Of a stretch of 64,000 nucleotides of DNA, positions 11,080 through 45,129 are shown piece after piece; position 1 is the first letter of the stretch, and the number at the start of each line of letters is the position of its first letter. The DNA is from Acidobacteriota bacterium (lineage in GTDB: Bacteria > Acidobacteriota > UBA4820 > DSQY01): NCBI GenBank assembly GCA_037445535.1, contig JBBIKI010000001.1, positions 46,325 to 110,324 of the forward strand, read 5' to 3'. The notes beneath the pieces are model-generated. The model was not told where the DNA came from, did not search any database, and saw only the letters and a program-made list of their open reading frames with translations. Position numbers and translations under genes: made by a program.

Positions 11080-11186
11080 GGCCCCGGGAGCACGAACCTG
11101 AGGACAGGGCTCCGATCCGGCCGCCGCGTCCCCCTCCGGCCCCCCTCCTTCCGTCTTGCCCCCTGCCGTCCACCCCTCGTATTCTC

Positions 11187-26941: not shown

Positions 26942-27033
26942 AAGGGCGAAACGCAAGGCGCGAGACGCACTCAGCCTAGAGTATGTGCGTTCATGAACGC
27001 GGGTCATGGCCCGTGTCCCGAGAGGAGTCTTCG

Positions 27034-28476
27034 ATGATGTACCCGACCTTTGAACAGATGCGCGACGATGTGCATAAGACGGTGGAGCACTGCGGCGAGG
27101 CGGGCAGCCTCAAGGTGACCGATCCCCGGGCATGGCAGGGGCCCCTATGCGATAACGTAGTTTGGACCGCCGTCTTCGCCCCCGATCAGGAGCTTCGGGG
27201 CCGGGCGCGGTTCATCCTCAAGAACGTGGCCCGGGCCTTAGGCATTCACCTTGCCTCCATCCAGGATCTCTACCTCGCCTCGGGACGGGGGGAGGCCGGC
27301 CCCTTCACGGTGCCGGCCATGAACATCCGCGGCCTCAGCTACGACACGGCCCGGGCCTTCTACCGCGCCGCCAACGCCACGTCCTGCGGAGCCTATGTCT
27401 TCGAGATCGCCAGGAGCGAGATGGGCTACACGGACCAGCGGCCCCATGAATACGTGGCGGTCATGCTGGCGGCGGCCATCCGGGAGGGCTTCACGGGCCC
27501 CGTCTTCATCCAGGGGGACCACTTCCAGGCCGCGGCGAAGGGGTATTTCGACAACCCCGGCGCCGAGGTGGACCGGCTCCGTGCCCTCATTCGCGAGTCC
27601 ATCGGAGCGGGCTTCTACAACATCGATATCGATTCCTCCACCTTGGTGGTCCTGGAGCGCGAAGGCCTGGGTGCCCAGCAGCGGGACAACGGAGCCGTCT
27701 GCGCCGGTCTCACCCGGTTCATCCGTGAGCACGAGCCGGAGGGCATCACCGTCTCCGTGGGCGGCGAGATCGGCGAGGTGGGGGGCCACAACAGCACCGT
27801 GGAGGAGTTCGAAGCCTTTATGGGCGAGTACCGCAAGGGCTTAGGAGAGGGCGTTCAGGGCATCTCCAAGATCTCGGTCCAGACGGGCACCAGCCACGGC
27901 GGCGTGGTCCTCCCAGACGGGACGGTGGCCAAGGTCAAGCTCGATTTCGGCGTCCTCAAGGCCATTTCCGATTCGGCCCGCAGCCGTTATGGGCTAGGCG
28001 GGACGGTGCAGCACGGGGCCTCCACCTTGCCCGACGACATGTTCCACCAGTTCCCGCAAAACGGCGCCGTGGAAGTCCACTTGGCCACGGGCTTCCAGAA
28101 CCTTGTCTACGATCACCCCGCCCTGCCCGCCCAGTTCAAGGCTCACGTATACGACTATCTGAGGGGCGCCTGCGCCAAGGAGCGCAAGGAGGGTGAGACG
28201 GAGGAGCAGTTTCTCTACAAAACTCGCAAGAAGGGCTTCGGCGGCACACTGAAGCGGCAGTGGTGGTCCCTCCCCTCGGGGGTGCGCGAGGAGGTAGGAG
28301 CGGCCCTGGAGGCCAAGTTTGCTTTCCTCATCGGCCAGCTCGGCGTGAGAGACACGAAGGGGACGGTGGCCCGCTTGGTGAAGACCGAGGCGCCCGCCCC
28401 GGACCGGGAAGCGGAGATCGCCGCCTGCAAGACGGTGGTAGTGGAGGCGCCCGAATCCAATCCGAGGGCGGACTGA
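27034..28476 (+). CDS. Class II fructose/ketose-bisphosphate aldolase family protein (long form)
   Basis: FIQGDHF, GEIGEVGG and TSHGG metal-binding motifs of class-II aldolases. About 480 aa with a C-terminal extension. RBS AGAGGAG before the ATG at 27034. Confidence 0.8.
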   Translation: MMYPTFEQMRDDVHKTVEHCGEAGSLKVTDPRAWQGPLCDNVVWTAVFAPDQELRGRARFILKNVARALGIHLASIQDLYLASGRGEAGPFTVPAMNIRGLSYDTARAFYRAANATSCGAYVFEIARSEMGYTDQRPHEYVAVMLAAAIREGFTGPVFIQGDHFQAAAKGYFDNPGAEVDRLRALIRESIGAGFYNIDIDSSTLVVLEREGLGAQQRDNGAVCAGLTRFIREHEPEGITVSVGGEIGEVGGHNSTVEEFEAFMGEYRKGLGEGVQGISKISVQTGTSHGGVVLPDGTVAKVKLDFGVLKAISDSARSRYGLGGTVQHGASTLPDDMFHQFPQNGAVEVHLATGFQNLVYDHPALPAQFKAHVYDYLRGACAKERKEGETEEQFLYKTRKKGFGGTLKRQWWSLPSGVREEVGAALEAKFAFLIGQLGVRDTKGTVARLVKTEAPAPDREAEIAACKTVVVEAPESNPRAD

Positions 28477-28480
28477 TTCT

Positions 28481-28537
28481 GGGGACAAGGGACAGGGGAC
28501 AAGGGGCAGGGGGCAGGACGGGGGGGCGCGTCCGGGG
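28481..28537 (+). repeat. G-rich degenerate tandem repeat (GGGGACAA-like units) / G-quadruplex-forming tract
   Basis: GGGGACAAGGGACAGGGGACAAGGGGCAGGGGGCAGGACGGGGGGG starts 5 nt after the aldolase stop. Seven G-runs of at least 3 within about 55 nt. Confidence 0.6.
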
Positions 28538-28552
28538 TTCGTGAGCAAACTC

Positions 28553-28581
28553 TTGACTAATGAGCCACTTGGAGGGATAAT
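28553..28581 (+). promoter_or_regulatory. Predicted sigma70-type promoter for yajC-secDF (TTGACT-N17-GATAAT)
   Basis: -35 TTGACT at 28553-28558, a 17-nt spacer, and -10 GATAAT at 28576-28581. A near-consensus hexamer pair in an otherwise GC-rich region. Confidence 0.4.
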
Positions 28582-28699
28582 CCGGGTTCGGAACGCTGGA
28601 AGTCCGGTGTTCCGCTCTCCGGATTTGGCCGCCTGGGACCGGAAGCGGTCCGGCGGAAGCTCCGGGCGCCGGGAGGCGCGGAGGGCCCGGCGGGGCCGT

Positions 28700-28722
28700 G
28701 GACGCGCGGGGCGTCCTTTTTT
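28700..28722 (+). terminator. Intrinsic terminator-like hairpin within the yajC leader (possible attenuator)
   Basis: GGACGC-GCGGG-GCGTCC followed by TTTTTT, about 25 nt upstream of the yajC RBS and downstream of the predicted promoter. Confidence 0.4.
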
Positions 28723-28745
28723 ATGGTTGAGCGAGGGAGGTTCCC

Positions 28746-29060
28746 ATGTCCTGGTTCCTGTTGATGGCCCAGCCGGGCGGTGGCGGCGCGCAGAGCAACC
28801 CCATCGCGGCGTTTCTGCCCATCGTTTTCATCATCGTGATCTTTTACTTCCTTTTGATCCGGCCCCAGCAGAAACGGGCCAAGCAGCAGCGGGCCATGCT
28901 GGACTCCCTCAAGAGCGGTGACCAGGTGGTGACCGTGGGGGGCCTCCACGGGACCGTGGCCGGGGTGGACCAGGACACGGTCATCCTGCGTGTAGCCGAC
29001 AACGTGAAGCTGACCTTCAACAAGGCCGCCATCGCGGCCCTCGTGAGCCAGAAGGAATAG
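28746..29060 (+). CDS. yajC: Preprotein translocase subunit YajC
   Basis: FLPIVFIIVIFYFLLIRPQQKRAKQQRAMLDSLKSGDQVVTVGGLHGTV is the classic YajC sequence. RBS GAGGGAGG. Confidence 0.85.
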   Translation: MSWFLLMAQPGGGGAQSNPIAAFLPIVFIIVIFYFLLIRPQQKRAKQQRAMLDSLKSGDQVVTVGGLHGTVAGVDQDTVILRVADNVKLTFNKAAIAALVSQKE

Positions 29061-29069
29061 GGGGGCATC

Positions 29070-31844
29070 ATGCGCGACAACATCAAATGGCGAGTTCTTC
29101 TGGTCATAGGGGTCATCGCCCTTTGCGTCTTTTTCTTTTGGAAGAATGGCCTGAAAGAGGGTCTGGACCTGCGCGGCGGCGTCCACCTGGTCCTTCTCAT
29201 GGACACCAACGTTTCGGTTTACAACCGCGTGCAGACGGACATCCTTGCGGCGGAAGAACAACTCAAATCCAAGAACATCCCCTACAGCAAGATTTACTCC
29301 GAGAACCAGAACATCAACACGATCTTCGTGTCAGGCGACAGCCCCAACCTGGGGGTGGCCATACGGGACCTGGCGGACAAGTCGCTCAGCAACTACGACT
29401 TCAAAGCCCTGGGCGGCGGCCAATACACCCTCACGCTCAAAGGGCCCTTCGAACGCGATTTGCGGGACAAGGCCGTCCAGCAGTCCGTGGAGGTCATCCG
29501 GAACCGCATCGACAAGTACGGCGTCTCAGAGCCCTCCATTCACCGGCAGGGGCTGGGTTCCAACAAGATCGTGGTGGAGCTGCCGGGGGTTGAGGACTCA
29601 ACCGAGATCAAGGCCCTCATCGGCAAGGCCGCCCAGCTAGAGTGGCACATCGCCGTGGATCCCAAGCAGGGAGCTCCGAGCCGCGAAGCCATCCTGAAAC
29701 AGTACGGCGGCACCCTTCCTCCGGACGTGGCCGTCTACCCGGGAAGCCGAGATAAGTTCGGCTCCGAGATCTACTTCGCCCTCAAGACCGTGGCCCCCAT
29801 CACCGGGGCGGATATCCAGGAAGTGAGGGTGGAGGCCAACCAGTACGGCCAGCCCGCCGTAGGCTTCATCCTGACGGCTACCGCGGGCCAGCGGTTCCGC
29901 GAGCTGACCCGCGCGCACCTCCACGAACCCCTCGCCATCGTCCTGGACGGGAATGTCATCTCCGCGCCGGTCATCAACGCCGAGATCGGCGACCGGGGCA
30001 TCATCGAGGGCAACTTCACGACCCAGGAAGCCCAGGAGCTGGTCTTCCAGCTCAAGTCGGGGGCCCTTCCGGCCATTCCGCGCTTCGCCGAGGAGCGCAC
30101 CATCGGGCCCAGCATGGGCCTCAGCTCCATCAAGAAGGGGACCGTATCGGGGCTCATCGGCCTCATCGCCATCCTGGCCTTCATGTTCATCTACTACCGG
30201 GCCTCGGGCATCAACGCCAACTTCTGCCTGCTGCTCAACCTCGTCATCCTCGTCGGCATCATGTCCACCTTCGGCTTCACCCTTACCGTCCCTGGCATCG
30301 CGGGCATCATCCTCACGCTGGGCATGGCCATCGACGCCAACGTTCTGATCTTCGAGCGGATCAAGGATGAGATCATCGAGAACAAGACCGTCCAGACGGC
30401 CATAGCCAACGGGTTCTCCAAGGCCTTCATCACCATTTTCGACACCCACGTCACGGACTGGGTCTCGGCGCTCTTCCTCCTGCAGTTCGGTACGGGGCCC
30501 GTGCGGGGGTTCGCCGTCACCCTCACGGTGGGCCTCATCGCCAACATGTTCACGGCGGTCTTCGTGTCCCGCATCATCTACGACATCGTGATGGACCTGC
30601 GGACCAAGGGCGGAAAGCGGCCCACGGACATCTCCATCGGTCCCATCCATTCCTTCCGAGGCTTCAAGATCCCCTTCATGAAGTACAAGGTCCACTTCAT
30701 CGTGGGTTCGGCCATCCTCATCGGCATAGGCGTCTGGAGCGTGGCCACCCGGGGTATCAACTGGGGCATCGACTTCCGGGGCGGCCAGGAGATGCAAGTC
30801 CGGTTCAGCCACCAGGTGGACCCCCGTGCCGTAGAAGCGACCATCAAGAAAAACACCGCGGGGACCGTGACCGTCGTGAGCTACGGCAAGCCCGAGGATC
30901 ACGAAGTTTTGGTCCGCATGGACGCCCGCAATAAGGAAGGCCAGCTCCTGGACGAAGTGGCCCTCGCCACGCGAAGCCAGCAAATCATGAGCGGCCTGCG
31001 CGGCCCGGCGATCCAGCAGGCCATCGCCGCGGGCAAGCTCGATGTGAACAGCACGAACGCCAAAACCGTCGAGGATCTTATCCTGGGCGGCATGAGGTCC
31101 GGTGCCATTTCGGGTACGGACGAGCAGGGCAAAGCCGTGGCTCAAGCCATCCAGGACTATAAGCGGGAGCACGGAGGCATGGTGGCCACCGTGGACGACC
31201 TGAAAAAGGTCCCCGGCATGACCGACGCCATGTTCAACTTCCTCAAGGACAAGGTCGTCACGGGTGACTTCGCCATCCAGCGCATCGATACGGTGGGCCC
31301 CACCGTCGGCAAGGAGCTTCAGAACAAAGCCCTCCAGGCCGTCATCGGATCCCTCATCGGCATCCTGCTCTACGCTTGGTTCCGCTTCCAGTTCCGGTTC
31401 AGCGTGGGAGCCATCCTCTCCCTGGTCCACGACACGCTCATGGCCATCGGCCTCGTGTCCCTCTTCCAGGTCGAAGTGAACCTGCCCACCATCGCCGCCC
31501 TCCTGACCCTCCTGGGCTACTCCATCAACGACACCATCGTGGTCTTTGACCGCGTTCGCGAACACATGAAGAAGGAGCGGAAAAAGGAGGACGACGACCT
31601 CTTCGACCGGTCCATCAACGAAACCCTGTCCCGTACCATGATCACCTCCATGCTCACCTTCTTCGTGGTGGTGGCCATGCTCATCTTCGGCGGCGAAGTC
31701 CTCTTCTCCTTCAGCTTCGTCATGACCGTGGGTATCATCGTGGGAACCTACTCCTCCATCTTCGTGGCCAGCCCGTACGTGCTGTGGTGGGACAAGCTCG
31801 GAGTCGAGAAGTACTTCAAGAAGTCCGGCGGGCGCCGGCGGTAA
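29070..31844 (+). CDS. secDF: Protein-export membrane protein SecDF (fused SecD-SecF)
   Basis: 924 aa, with two RND-like 6-TM modules, SecD periplasmic domain motifs and the SecF region (TIFDTHVTDW). Sits directly after yajC. Confidence 0.9.
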   Translation: MRDNIKWRVLLVIGVIALCVFFFWKNGLKEGLDLRGGVHLVLLMDTNVSVYNRVQTDILAAEEQLKSKNIPYSKIYSENQNINTIFVSGDSPNLGVAIRDLADKSLSNYDFKALGGGQYTLTLKGPFERDLRDKAVQQSVEVIRNRIDKYGVSEPSIHRQGLGSNKIVVELPGVEDSTEIKALIGKAAQLEWHIAVDPKQGAPSREAILKQYGGTLPPDVAVYPGSRDKFGSEIYFALKTVAPITGADIQEVRVEANQYGQPAVGFILTATAGQRFRELTRAHLHEPLAIVLDGNVISAPVINAEIGDRGIIEGNFTTQEAQELVFQLKSGALPAIPRFAEERTIGPSMGLSSIKKGTVSGLIGLIAILAFMFIYYRASGINANFCLLLNLVILVGIMSTFGFTLTVPGIAGIILTLGMAIDANVLIFERIKDEIIENKTVQTAIANGFSKAFITIFDTHVTDWVSALFLLQFGTGPVRGFAVTLTVGLIANMFTAVFVSRIIYDIVMDLRTKGGKRPTDISIGPIHSFRGFKIPFMKYKVHFIVGSAILIGIGVWSVATRGINWGIDFRGGQEMQVRFSHQVDPRAVEATIKKNTAGTVTVVSYGKPEDHEVLVRMDARNKEGQLLDEVALATRSQQIMSGLRGPAIQQAIAAGKLDVNSTNAKTVEDLILGGMRSGAISGTDEQGKAVAQAIQDYKREHGGMVATVDDLKKVPGMTDAMFNFLKDKVVTGDFAIQRIDTVGPTVGKELQNKALQAVIGSLIGILLYAWFRFQFRFSVGAILSLVHDTLMAIGLVSLFQVEVNLPTIAALLTLLGYSINDTIVVFDRVREHMKKERKKEDDDLFDRSINETLSRTMITSMLTFFVVVAMLIFGGEVLFSFSFVMTVGIIVGTYSSIFVASPYVLWWDKLGVEKYFKKSGGRRR

Positions 31845-39717: not shown

Positions 39718-42537
39718 ATGGAACACATTCGCATCAGAGGCGCCCGGGAGCACAACCTCAAAAACCTGGACGTGGTCCTTCCCAAGAACAAGCTGGTGGT
39801 CATCACGGGACTTTCGGGCTCGGGGAAGTCCTCCTTGGCCTTTGACACCCTCTACGCCGAGGGCCAGCGGCGTTACGTGGAGAGCCTTTCGGCCTATGCC
39901 CGCCAATTTCTCGATTTGATGGAAAAGCCCGACGTGGATGCCATCGAAGGCCTCTCGCCGGCCATCTCCATCGAGCAGAAGAGCACCTCCCACAACCCGC
40001 GGTCCACGGTGGGCACGGTGACGGAGATCTACGACTACCTCCGCGTGCTCTTCGCGCGCATTGGCAAGCCCTTCTGCCCCAAGTGCGGGCGGCCCATCGA
40101 GAGCCAGACGGTCCAGCAGATGGTGGACGCGGTCCTGGCCTTCCCCGAGGGGGAGAGGATCTTCGTCCTAGCCCCCGTGGTCCGGGGCCGGAAGGGCGAG
40201 TACCGCAAACTCTTCCTGGACCTCCTACGAGAAGGCTTCGTCAGGGCCCGGGTGGACGGCAAGGTGGTGGAGCTGGAGGGGATCGCCGACCTGGCCCGGT
40301 ATAAGGCGCATACCATCGAGGTGGTGGTGGACCGGCTCGTCATCAAAGCAGGGATCCAGGGCCGCCTCACGGAATCGGTGGAGCTGGCCCTGCAGAAGGG
40401 GGAAGGCCTCATGGTGGTTCACCGCTTGGAGTCGGGGGAGGACCAGCTTTTCTCCGAGCGGCTCTCCTGCCCCGCATGCCAGACGGCCCTGCCCGAGATG
40501 GAGCCGCGCCTCTTCTCGTTCAACAGCCCCCACGGCGCCTGTCCCGAGTGTTCGGGATTGGGGGTGAAGATGGAGCTGGACCCCTCCAAGATCGTGCCCA
40601 ATCCGTCCCTGTCCATCGCCCAGGGCGTTCTGGCGCCGTGGCCAGTGGAGGGAGGCTTCTGGTACCGGGAGATGCTGGAGGGGCTGGGACGGGAGTTGAA
40701 CTTCTCCCTCAAGACGCCCTGGAACAAGCTTCCCGAGGAGGCGCGGCGCGCCGTCCTTTACGGCACCAACGGCAAGAAGATCGCCTACGACGTGAAGCGG
40801 GACACGAGCCGCTACCAGTTCCAGCACGCCTTCGAAGGGATCATTCCCAACCTCCTGCGCCGCTATAAGGAGACCAAGTCGGACCTGTCCCGCGGAGAAA
40901 TCGAGGCCTACATGTCCTCCAACCCCTGCCCCGCCTGCTCCGGACTGCGGCTGAAGCCCGAGGCCCTTTCCGTGCGGGTGGGAGCCTACAACATCGCCTC
41001 CTTCAGTGCCCTGCCCGTGAGCCAGGCCCGGCGGGCGATTGAGAGCCTGAACCTGGGCGCCCGGGACCGGGAGATCGCCCGCCTGATCATGAAGGAGATT
41101 CGCAGCCGGCTGGCCTTTTTGGAGAACGTGGGGCTCGGGTACCTGGCCCTTTCTCGGTCCGCTACGACCCTCTCGGGGGGAGAGAGCCAGCGCATCCGGC
41201 TCGCGACCCAGGTGGGCAGCCAGCTCACGGGGGTTCTCTACGTGCTGGACGAGCCCTCCATCGGCCTCCATCCGAGGGACAACCGCAAGCTCCTGGACAC
41301 CCTGGAGGCCATGAGAGACCTGGGCAACACGGTGGTGGTGGTGGAGCACGACGAGGAGACCATCCGCACCGCGGACCACGTGCTGGACTTGGGGCCGGGC
41401 GCGGGCGTGCTGGGGGGCGAAGTGGTGGCCCAAGGCACCGTGCCGGACCTCTGCGCCCAGGAGCGCTCTCTCACGGGTGCCTATCTCTCGGGGCGCCGCA
41501 GTGTTCCCGTTCCCGCCAAGCGCCGGCTCTCCCGCGGCGTTCTTTGGGTGCGAGGGGCGCAAGAGAACAACCTGAAAGATATCGACGTGTCCATCCCCTT
41601 GGGCACCTTCACGGTGGTGGCGGGGGTGTCCGGTTCGGGCAAGTCCACCCTAGTGCACGAGATCCTGTACAAGGGGCTCGTGCAGAAGGTCTACCATGGC
41701 GTGGACCGGCCCGGCGCGCACCGGAGCATCGAAGGCTGGCCGCTCCTGGACAAGGTCATCGAGATCGATCAGGCACCCATCGGGCGCACGCCCCGCAGCA
41801 ATCCGGCCACCTATACGGGCCTCTTCACCCCCATCAGGGACCTCTTCGCTCAGGTCCCCGAGGCACGGGCCCGAGGGTACAAACCCGGCCGCTTCTCCTT
41901 CAACGTGAAGGGGGGCCGCTGCGAGGCCTGCCAGGGCGACGGTGTGTTGAAGATCGAGATGCACTTCCTGCCGGACGTGTATGTCACGTGCGAGACGTGC
42001 AAAGGCCGGCGGTACAACCGGGAGACGCTGGAAGTGCGATTCAAGGGCAAGACCATCGCCGAAGTCCTGGACATGACCGTGAGCGAGGCTCTCCTGCTGT
42101 TCGACAAGGTTCCCCTCGTGGCCAAGAAGCTGAAGACTCTCGAAGACGTGGGTTTGGGGTACGTCCACCTGGGCCAGCAGGCCACCACCCTCTCGGGAGG
42201 AGAGGCTCAGCGCATCAAGCTCGCCCGGGAGTTGTCCCGGCGGGCCACAGGCAGTACCCTGTATGTCTTGGACGAGCCCACGACGGGCCTTCACTTCGAG
42301 GACGTGCGGTGCCTTCTGGAGGTCCTCCAGCGCTTGGTGGATACGGGCAATACGGTGGTGGTCATTGAGCACAACCTGGATGTCATCAAGTGCGCGGACC
42401 ACATCATCGAGCTCGGGCCAGAGGGCGGCGACGGGGGGGGCTACGTGGTAGCCCGCGGCGCGCCCGAAGATGTCGCCTTGGTAGCGGCCTCGCCGACGGG
42501 GGCCTATCTCAAGAGGCTCCTTGGCGGAAGGACATAG
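39718..42537 (+). CDS. uvrA: Excinuclease ABC subunit A
   Basis: [22 protein letters not shown], two ABC modules ([18 protein letters not shown]) and zinc-finger Cys clusters. 940 aa. Confidence 0.95.
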
Positions 42538-42625
42538 AACGGGGGCTGGACGGGGAGGACCGGGCTCGCCATGGGCGGTAGGTTGTGCCCGGGGCGCTCC
42601 ATCCGCAGGTTTAGGGGGGTGATGA

Positions 42626-45054: not shown

Positions 45055-45129
45055 TGGTGGGCGGTGAGGGATTCGAACCCCCGACATCCTGCGTGTAAGG
45101 CAGGCGCTCTTCCGCTGAGCTAACCGCCC
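45055..45129 (-). tRNA. tRNA-Val (anticodon UAC)
   Basis: The reverse complement GGGCGGTTAGCTCAGCGGAAGAGCGCCTGCCTTACACGCAGGATGTCGGGGGTTCGAATCCCTCACCGCCCACCA folds as a cloverleaf: 7-bp acceptor stem, D-arm, anticodon loop CTTACAC, TPsiC loop TTCGAAT, 3' CCA. Confidence 0.85.

Follow-up and report, generated by a model that had tools for sequence, protein, structure and literature searches.

A G-rich heptamer repeat between an aldolase-like gene and yajC-secDF in an Acidobacteriota genome is probably a lineage-specific slippage product with predicted G-quadruplex capacity

The window analysed here is a stretch of 64,000 nt (64 kb) from contig JBBIKI010000001.1 of an Acidobacteriota bacterium (assembly GCA_037445535.1), and it contains a G-rich tract at positions 28481-28537, situated between a class-II fructose-bisphosphate (FBP) aldolase-like gene and the yajC-secDF genes. 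The tract is probably a lineage-specific, recently expanded, copy-number-variable simple repeat of the GGGGACA type, organised as heptamers and 14-mers, that is, an ordinary product of slippage and not a conserved control element. Any effect of a G-quadruplex (G4) formed by the tract is taken as incidental because the G4, the repeat number, and a terminator are all unconserved in close relatives that keep the promoter and the leader of yajC.

The string quoted by an earlier sequence-only reading of the window, GGGGACAAGGGACAGGGGACAAGGGGCAGGGGGCAGGACGGGGGGG, is located at 28481-28527, and the G-rich stretch extends to 28537. At least six G-runs in imperfect GGGGACA repeats had been described; seven runs of at least three Gs are present in 28481-28537, six of which contain at least four Gs, and Tandem Repeats Finder (TRF) recovers the repeat at two periods. 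At period 7, the consensus GGGGACA is present in 5.3 copies with 83% matches, forming an array at 28481-28517, and at period 14, GGGGACAAGGGACA is present in 2.3 copies with 94% matches and a score of 57. The heptamers of the tract are the variants GGGGACA, AGGGACA, and GGGGGCA. The tract begins 4 nt past the aldolase-like TGA and ends 15 nt before the -35 hexamer TTGACT, in agreement with its earlier placement after the aldolase stop and before a promoter-like element of yajC-secDF. The genes on both sides are located on the + strand, and the G-rich strand of the tract is the coding (non-template) strand of the aldolase gene. The GC content of the window is 65.8%, and the figure of 68% given earlier has to be corrected. 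No second copy of the 14-mer was found in the window with up to two mismatches allowed, so that within these 64 kb the tract is neither a dispersed element nor one copy of a common dispersed repeat, an outcome that the sequence-only reading had itself named as damaging. A coding explanation was also rejected: in-frame read-through of the TGA would add a 27-residue Gly-rich tail (by eye), the aldolase C-terminus NPRAD and its stop are common to all relatives, and the sequence downstream is not conserved.

Ten contigs (L130-L139), derived from several samples and assemblers and reached via P0241 of the window's own 90% YajC cluster, served as close relatives. Segment identities to the window were computed for L133, L130, and L138, and third codon positions were compared for L133 and L130. 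Within the locus, conservation is lowest in the spacer that runs from the aldolase stop to the -35 hexamer, with an identity of 57-70% versus 77-91% for the third codon positions in the flanking genes; the promoter and the leader exceed the synonymous sites in conservation, with 100% and 94-97%, respectively. In these alignments, the tract is a copy-number-variable repeat situated in the fastest-evolving piece of the locus, beside two of the slowest-evolving pieces.

The spacers of the ten contigs are of two types. In type A (L131, L133, L137, and L139), the spacer has a length of 62 nt and reads TTCT-GGGGACAAGGGACA-GGGGGCAGCATGGGGGCCCGCGTCC..., which corresponds to the window sequence less exactly one 14-nt unit, with C in the 3' part where the window has G. 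In type B (L130, L132, L134-L136, and L138), the spacer has a length of 80 nt, reads TTAGGAGGACAGCGGACACGGAACGGGAGG..., and consists of degenerate GGACA heptamers with one G3 run only and without any putative quadruplex sequence (PQS). The spacer of the window, with 76 nt, lies between the two in length. The exact 14-nt unit indel relative to type A directly supports the slipped-strand hot spot that had been proposed for the tract. The extra unit probably arose by slippage during replication or by tandem duplication, as such indels usually do, and computation shows that this unit and several C-to-G differences in the 3' part, which lengthen the G-runs, jointly create a four-tetrad G4 motif.

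A canonical PQS was defined as at least four G-runs of at least three Gs on the same strand, separated by loops of 1-7 nt. The tract corresponds to this definition, with two adjacent three-tetrad PQSs at 28481-28506 and 28509-28537, and a regex scan located at 28495-28526 the sole four-tetrad PQS of the window. A G4Hunter cut-off of about 1.5-2 is in common use; the tract is the highest-scoring region of the window, with a 25-nt maximum of 2.6, followed by the next region with 2.08. ViennaRNA with G-quadruplex energies predicts a four-layer G4 at 28495-28526 with a gain of approximately 19 kcal/mol. The G4-aware and the ordinary fold have energies of -37.7 versus -18.6 kcal/mol for 69 nt, -57.7 versus -38.8 kcal/mol for 121 nt, and -89.2 versus -72.7 kcal/mol for 201 nt. 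The Watson-Crick fold of the tract region is no more stable than that of shuffled sequences (z 0.24 for 121 nt; for the spacer, z -0.55 with a minimum free energy (MFE) of -18.9 kcal/mol). According to these motif scores and energy models, the tract could fold into an intramolecular G4, and the sequence requirement for such folding, which the sequence-only reading had recognised, is present in the PQS, the G4Hunter score, and the predicted four-layer structure.

The three alleles differ markedly in this capacity, with contexts that are otherwise near-identical. The motif is four-tetrad in the window, three-tetrad in type A, and missing in type B, and the 25-nt G4Hunter maximum is 2.6, 1.84, and 0.84-0.88, respectively. 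Simultaneously, the G4-aware fold of the spacer differs from the ordinary fold in the window only (-37.8 versus -18.9 kcal/mol); in type A, type B, and seven more distant spacers, it is identical to the ordinary hairpin fold. The type-A hairpin results from pairing of the G-rich arm with CCCGCGTCCC, whose C residues the window has lost. The window and L081, a Logan assembly, are identical over the whole region, and strong predicted G4 capacity is specific to this lineage.

The claim that such a tract is rare stood for real sequences and failed against random ones. The tract has the top G4Hunter score and the sole four-tetrad PQS of the window, and in a further 380 kb of fetched loci with a GC content of at least 60%, the lone four-tetrad PQS belongs to L081, that is, to an identical copy of the tract. 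The null model consisted of first-order Markov sequences with the composition (dinucleotide content) of the window, generated in 64-kb trials. Of the trials, 53% reached a 25-nt G4Hunter score of at least 2.6 and 75% had seven or more G3 runs within 57 nt; a four-tetrad PQS occurred at least once in 40%, and 25% gave a TRF score of 57 or higher. Strand asymmetry over 57 nt was the only unusual property (2.3% of trials). The tract is rare among real sequences, yet within reach of composition alone. Meanwhile, three-tetrad PQSs are depleted about 1.8-fold in the window (14 versus 25 +/- 4.6 expected, with 1% of the simulations as low), in keeping with a tendency of coding sequence in general to avoid G4 motifs. 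Avoidance by real sequence, most of it coding, accounts for the scarcity of such tracts there. Hence, counting G-runs is by itself a weak criterion for GC-rich genomes, in which random sequence forms similar clusters and real sequence is depleted of them.

The same frequencies, namely an equal G-run density in 53-75% and a similar TRF score in 25% of composition-matched random sequences, speak for another origin of the tract, as an artefact of assembly or as G-runs clustered purely by chance and never part of a repeat, and poly-G artefacts occur in two-colour sequencing. Such an origin is extremely improbable. L081, an independent assembly from Logan, shows no difference from the window across the region; the type-A contigs, which come from several samples and assemblers, have unit 1 and the flanks in common with the window and deviate from it by exactly one unit; and the tract is built as a repeat, unlike poly-G, and is embedded in a syntenic locus.

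A terminator scan of 27500-29500 found sites only at 28700 and 29108, and no terminator-like site in the spacer 28477-28552. With no terminator ahead of it, the tract is taken to be transcribed as the 3' end of the aldolase mRNA, and a G4 in this RNA tail, or in the displaced non-template DNA strand, might slow RNA polymerase or 3' exonucleases. A dedicated role as a transcription boundary or stability element, as the sequence-only reading had proposed, would go further: a G4 or a DNA:RNA hybrid G4 would pause or terminate the polymerase or protect the mRNA 3' end, insulating the yajC leader promoter and replacing the stem-loop terminator of distant relatives. The four-tetrad PQS on the coding strand 4 nt past the stop, the G4-aware fold more stable by about 19 kcal/mol, the rarity of motifs this strong in real GC-rich sequence, and the mechanistic precedent of the mitochondrial CSB II (conserved sequence block II; PMC3488243, PMC4176368) are in line with such a role, as is a spacer without a canonical terminator, whereas three more distant relatives (L002, L128, and L118) carry hairpins there. 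The role is nevertheless unlikely and finds no support in the comparison of relatives. Among the closest of them, which keep these genes, the promoter, and the leader, type B has no G4 and type A is predicted to favour a hairpin, so that G4 capacity is lost in the one type and weakened in the other, and the spacer evolves faster than synonymous sites. Furthermore, near-clade spacers have a stability at the level of shuffles (z ~0), so that a strong boundary is not a conserved requirement. A canonical terminator at the spacer was found in no close relative; therefore, a boundary is not a conserved need at this site.

The wider relatives place these differences in context. The order aldolase-spacer-promoter-leader-yajC-secDF is retained in L002 and in many metagenomic contigs found via YajC homologues, and the spacer is unalignable outside the nearest clade. 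In the L002 spacer, the terminator hairpin is perfect over 14 bp and has a T-run (z -4.35); the L128 spacer contains a classical terminator with a GC-rich hairpin and a T-run. In L118, an 8-bp hairpin is only nominally more stable than shuffles (z -1.78), and the spacers of L122-L125 contain a short GC hairpin. In the case of L082-L084, a G- and purine-rich start is followed by weak hairpins at shuffle level (z ~0); hairpin terminators in the nearest relatives were rejected on this basis, and the claim of a terminator is restricted to L002 and L128. L109, with a YajC 86% identical, has a single GGGGACAAGGGA directly past TGATTC, which matches unit 1 at 12 of 14 positions. In the window, the GCGTCC of the weak hairpin at 28516-28533 is also present in type A, L083, and L084, and this hairpin looks like a remnant of the hairpin seen in relatives. 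A scan of metagenomes with a degenerate promoter pattern returned 17 loci, three of which were relevant (L091, L095, and L100), the others being AT-rich chance matches.

In the near-clade spacers (window, L082-L084, L109, and L130-L139), the first ~30 nt past the stop are purine-rich (~70%) after TGATT, and it is this start, not G-runs, that all of them share. Two to five GGA or Shine-Dalgarno-like motifs are visible by eye in the same ~30 nt. The purine-rich start could be a matter of composition alone or of some weak constraint, for instance binding by proteins or ribosomes. CsrA-type GGA sites or Shine-Dalgarno-like repeats were rejected as an explanation, as two to five GGA per spacer (by eye) are expected in purine-rich sequence.

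Several points weigh against the reading of the tract as an incidental slippage product. The window's own lineage is represented by two assemblies only, the window and L081, which are identical and possibly derived from the same reads, so slippage within a population was not directly observed. As the only four-tetrad PQS in the ~444 kb examined, the tract is an outlier among real sequences, and with PQSs depleted across the window, its persistence could mean that it is tolerated or useful. The purine- and GGA-rich start past the stop in all near-clade relatives hints at some constraint on composition. In addition, an unconserved tract is still compatible with a recent, lineage-specific function, and with no canonical aldolase terminator in the window, the G4 could be the sole structural element at the 3' end. 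The most specific form of such a function, in which the expanded repeat replaced a lost stem-loop terminator in the window's lineage and an RNA or hybrid G4 ends the aldolase transcript and insulates the yajC-secDF leader promoter, is a long shot. If true, this replacement would represent a natural bacterial case of G4-based, hairpin-independent termination at its evolutionary origin, with types A and B as built-in controls.

The position of the tract also raises the possibility of an upstream regulatory element of the yajC-secDF promoter, in which the GGGGACA/GGACA units or a DNA G4, at -16 to -72 from the -35 hexamer, would serve as a binding site for an activator or a repressor or change how the promoter opens. 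A strongly conserved promoter starts 15 nt past the end of the tract, GGACA-type heptamers recur in type A and type B, and in work cited in PMC4692102, promoter-near G4s of E. coli can increase or decrease expression according to their position and strand. Conservation of the promoter core and its spacer is family-wide; the 60-80 nt upstream are unalignable beyond the genus. Among close relatives, the unit number and the spacing to the -35 hexamer vary by 14-18 nt, which would be poorly tolerated by a positioned protein site, and a period of 7 nt does not keep in phase with the turns of the DNA helix. A regulatory element of this kind is very improbable.

The opposite strand was considered as a Rho-loading (rut) site that would stop antisense transcripts from the yajC side before they reach the aldolase gene. 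Rho prefers a C-rich, G-poor composition, and the minus strand of 28481-28537 is extremely rich in C and poor in G. In 27500-29500, the single promoter-like site is on the + strand and no antisense promoter was detected, and the C-rich strand bias is missing from type B, so that a rut site is hardly credible here. The tract is best regarded, as stated at the outset, as a probable slippage product of its lineage. By itself it has little weight, being one more short, G-rich tandem repeat from an intergenic spacer of a bacterium. It is, however, a clean example in which a single slippage event and a few substitutions would turn a G-poor ancestor into a strong G4 motif, and the three natural alleles would be a convenient test set for G4 effects on bacterial transcription read-through. 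The features of the locus are collected in Table 1.

Table 1. Positions of the features around the tract and identities of locus segments to the window in close relatives
Feature	Position	Strand	Identity to window	Basis
Aldolase 3' part			92-93%	
TGA stop of class-II FBP-aldolase-like gene (26983-28476)	28474..28476	+		Open reading frame (ORF) list; Pfam PF01116, E 4.9e-14
Non-coding spacer, aldolase stop to -35 hexamer, 76 nt, hypervariable, contains the tract	28477..28552	+	57-70%	Identity to relatives
Repeat unit 1, GGGGACAAGGGACA, two heptamers	28481..28494	+		TRF periods 14 and 7; single copy in type-A relatives
Repeat unit 2, GGGGACAAGGGGCA, extra 14-nt unit missing from type A	28495..28508	+		Exact 14-nt alignment gap in L131 and L133
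Four-tetrad G4 motif GGGG-ACAA-GGGG-CA-GGGGG-CAGGAC-GGGGGGG	28495..28526	+		Regex scan; ViennaRNA with G-quadruplex energies
Fifth heptamer, degenerate, GGGGGCA	28509..28515	+		TRF period-7 array; common to type A
Weak 5-bp hairpin GGACG(GGGGGGCG)CGTCC, no T-run after it	28516..28533	+		MFE structures
Sigma-70-like promoter TTGACT-17-GATAAT	28553..28581	+	100%	Consensus scan, 10/12 matches; identical in L130, L133, and L138
Structured leader before yajC, 164 nt	28582..28745	+	94-97%	Fold z-score -2.6
Leader P1 hairpin	28590-28613	+		Covariation
Leader terminator hairpin with T6, followed by yajC Shine-Dalgarno	28700-28722	+		Terminator scan
yajC			95-97%	
secDF 5' part			88-95%	
Third codon positions, flanking genes			77-91%	

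The gene upstream of the tract matches PF01116, and the nearest relatives of its product in genome collections are Acidobacteriota metagenome-assembled genomes with a protein identity of 67-73%. Downstream, yajC (28746-29060) is followed by a fused secDF (29070-31844). The promoter-like element noted earlier is supported by its conservation, being 100% identical in the close relatives and recognisable in all Acidobacteriota relatives examined by TTGAC, a conserved AGCCACTT-like spacer, and ATAAT. In all of these relatives, the promoter and a leader of 130-220 nt precede yajC-secDF, and the leaders end in a hairpin and a T-run directly before the yajC Shine-Dalgarno sequence. Homologous promoter-leader stretches were taken from L002, L082-L084, L089, L091, L095, L107, L109, L112, L116-L119, L122, L128, and L130-L139.

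The leader of the window forms a more stable fold than its shuffles (z -2.6). Formal covariation testing covered the P1 helix of the leader. In P1, an apical CCGG-NNNN-CCGG is conserved and the lower stem covaries. The P1 alignment pairs in 80.8% of its cells, with compensatory changes at four pairs, and its covariation score of 0.327, compared with 0.236 in shuffles, was attained by none of 500 shuffles. The P1 covariance model recovers 17 of 17 relatives with E values from 8e-9 to 3e-3. RNAalifold recovered a 10-bp P1 helix from eight near-clade sequences and gave no consensus for all 15 full-length leaders because of their length variation. As seen by eye in the sequences and the per-sequence folds, a conserved CUUCC(U)UCC of the leader has two possible pairing partners, an internal GGAAG and the yajC Shine-Dalgarno sequence. 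Rfam searches of the window at gathering thresholds, of 28400-28800 at E up to 10, and of six related loci returned nothing relevant, the matches being a tRNA-Val at 45058-45129 and chance lncRNA (long non-coding RNA) hits only, and a search of the literature gave no report of a riboswitch associated with yajC. From its conservation and structure, the leader may be an undescribed cis-regulatory element for the Sec machinery, such as an attenuator or a riboswitch, or a small RNA gene. The conserved promoter and the structured leader before yajC-secDF are a more valuable by-product of the analysis than the tract.

Across 27277-30560, the similarity of the window to L130 and L133 is mosaic. The leader of the window is nearer to type A (97.0% versus 93.9%), and so is the spacer, and its secDF is nearer to type B (94.6% versus 88.5% for type A). 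Judged from these identities, the mosaic suggests homologous recombination among these close lineages, the breakpoint lying near yajC.

Two other co-oriented intergenic regions of the window carry a sense-strand G-rich tract directly past a stop, namely 11080-11186 on the minus strand, past the stop of a hisC-like gene, and 42538-42625 on the plus strand, past the gene ending at 42537. The tract in 11080-11186 has a G4Hunter score of 2.04 and contains GGCAGGGGGCAAGACGG, one mismatch from 28505-28521; this one-mismatch copy of the 17-mer GGCAGGGGGCAGGACGG is located at 11151-11167 on the minus strand, with 0.02 copies expected from shuffles of the whole window. After shuffling of the G-rich intergenic regions themselves, the similarity to the focal tract is marginal (p ~0.03-0.04); homology with the copy at 11151-11167 was rejected on this account, and the resemblance is treated as shared composition. 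The hisC-like gene that precedes this second G-rich tract encodes a product 96% identical to the HisC homologue P0121.

Compared with known systems, the tract occupies the slot past the stop in which L002 and L128 carry the GC-rich hairpins and T-runs of intrinsic terminators. Unlike those, it has neither a stable hairpin (z -0.55) nor a T-run, and it lies outside the definition of an intrinsic terminator. Phase-variable contingency repeats, for example those of Neisseria and Haemophilus, are likewise short tandem repeats whose unit number differs between close relatives. The tract differs from them in its housekeeping neighbours and in its location outside any ORF and outside the -35/-10 region, where a change of units shifts no reading frame and no promoter spacing. 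Because the repeat is outside an ORF and outside the -35/-10 spacer, a role in phase variation is unlikely.

In the mitochondrial CSB II, a G-rich non-template strand causes termination through an RNA or hybrid G4 (PMC3488243, PMC4176368). The tract shares with it G-runs on the non-template strand, a nascent RNA that would be G-rich if the tract is transcribed, and polymorphism in G-run length. CSB II is conserved and has a demonstrated role in primer formation with a single-subunit polymerase, whereas the tract is unconserved and would meet the multisubunit polymerase of bacteria.

Rehm et al. 2015 (PMC4692102) described G4-capable, G-rich heptamer repeats, GGGAATC in Xanthomonas and GGGGA(C/T)T in Nostoc, which are over-represented in non-coding regions, with a preference for sites between co-oriented ORFs and just past stop codons. 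According to the same work (PMC4692102), four units are preferred, the unit number varies between related genomes, and the repeats are dispersed in many copies per genome without a known function. The tract resembles them in its head-to-tail heptamers, about five units each with a G-run (G3-5) and together G4-capable, in its place beside a stop codon between co-oriented genes, and in a unit number and sequence that vary between close relatives with conserved flanking genes. It differs in its unit, which is GGGGACA and not GGGNATC or GGGGA(C/T)T, in its Acidobacteriota-like host lineage, and in the presence of one array only in the 64-kb window, whereas the described repeats are dispersed genome-wide. 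Cyanobacterial short tandemly repeated repetitive (STRR) heptamers are related to repeats of this type. By analogy of unit size, position, and variability, the nearest described class for the tract is that of the G4-capable heptamer repeats reported by Rehm et al. 2015.

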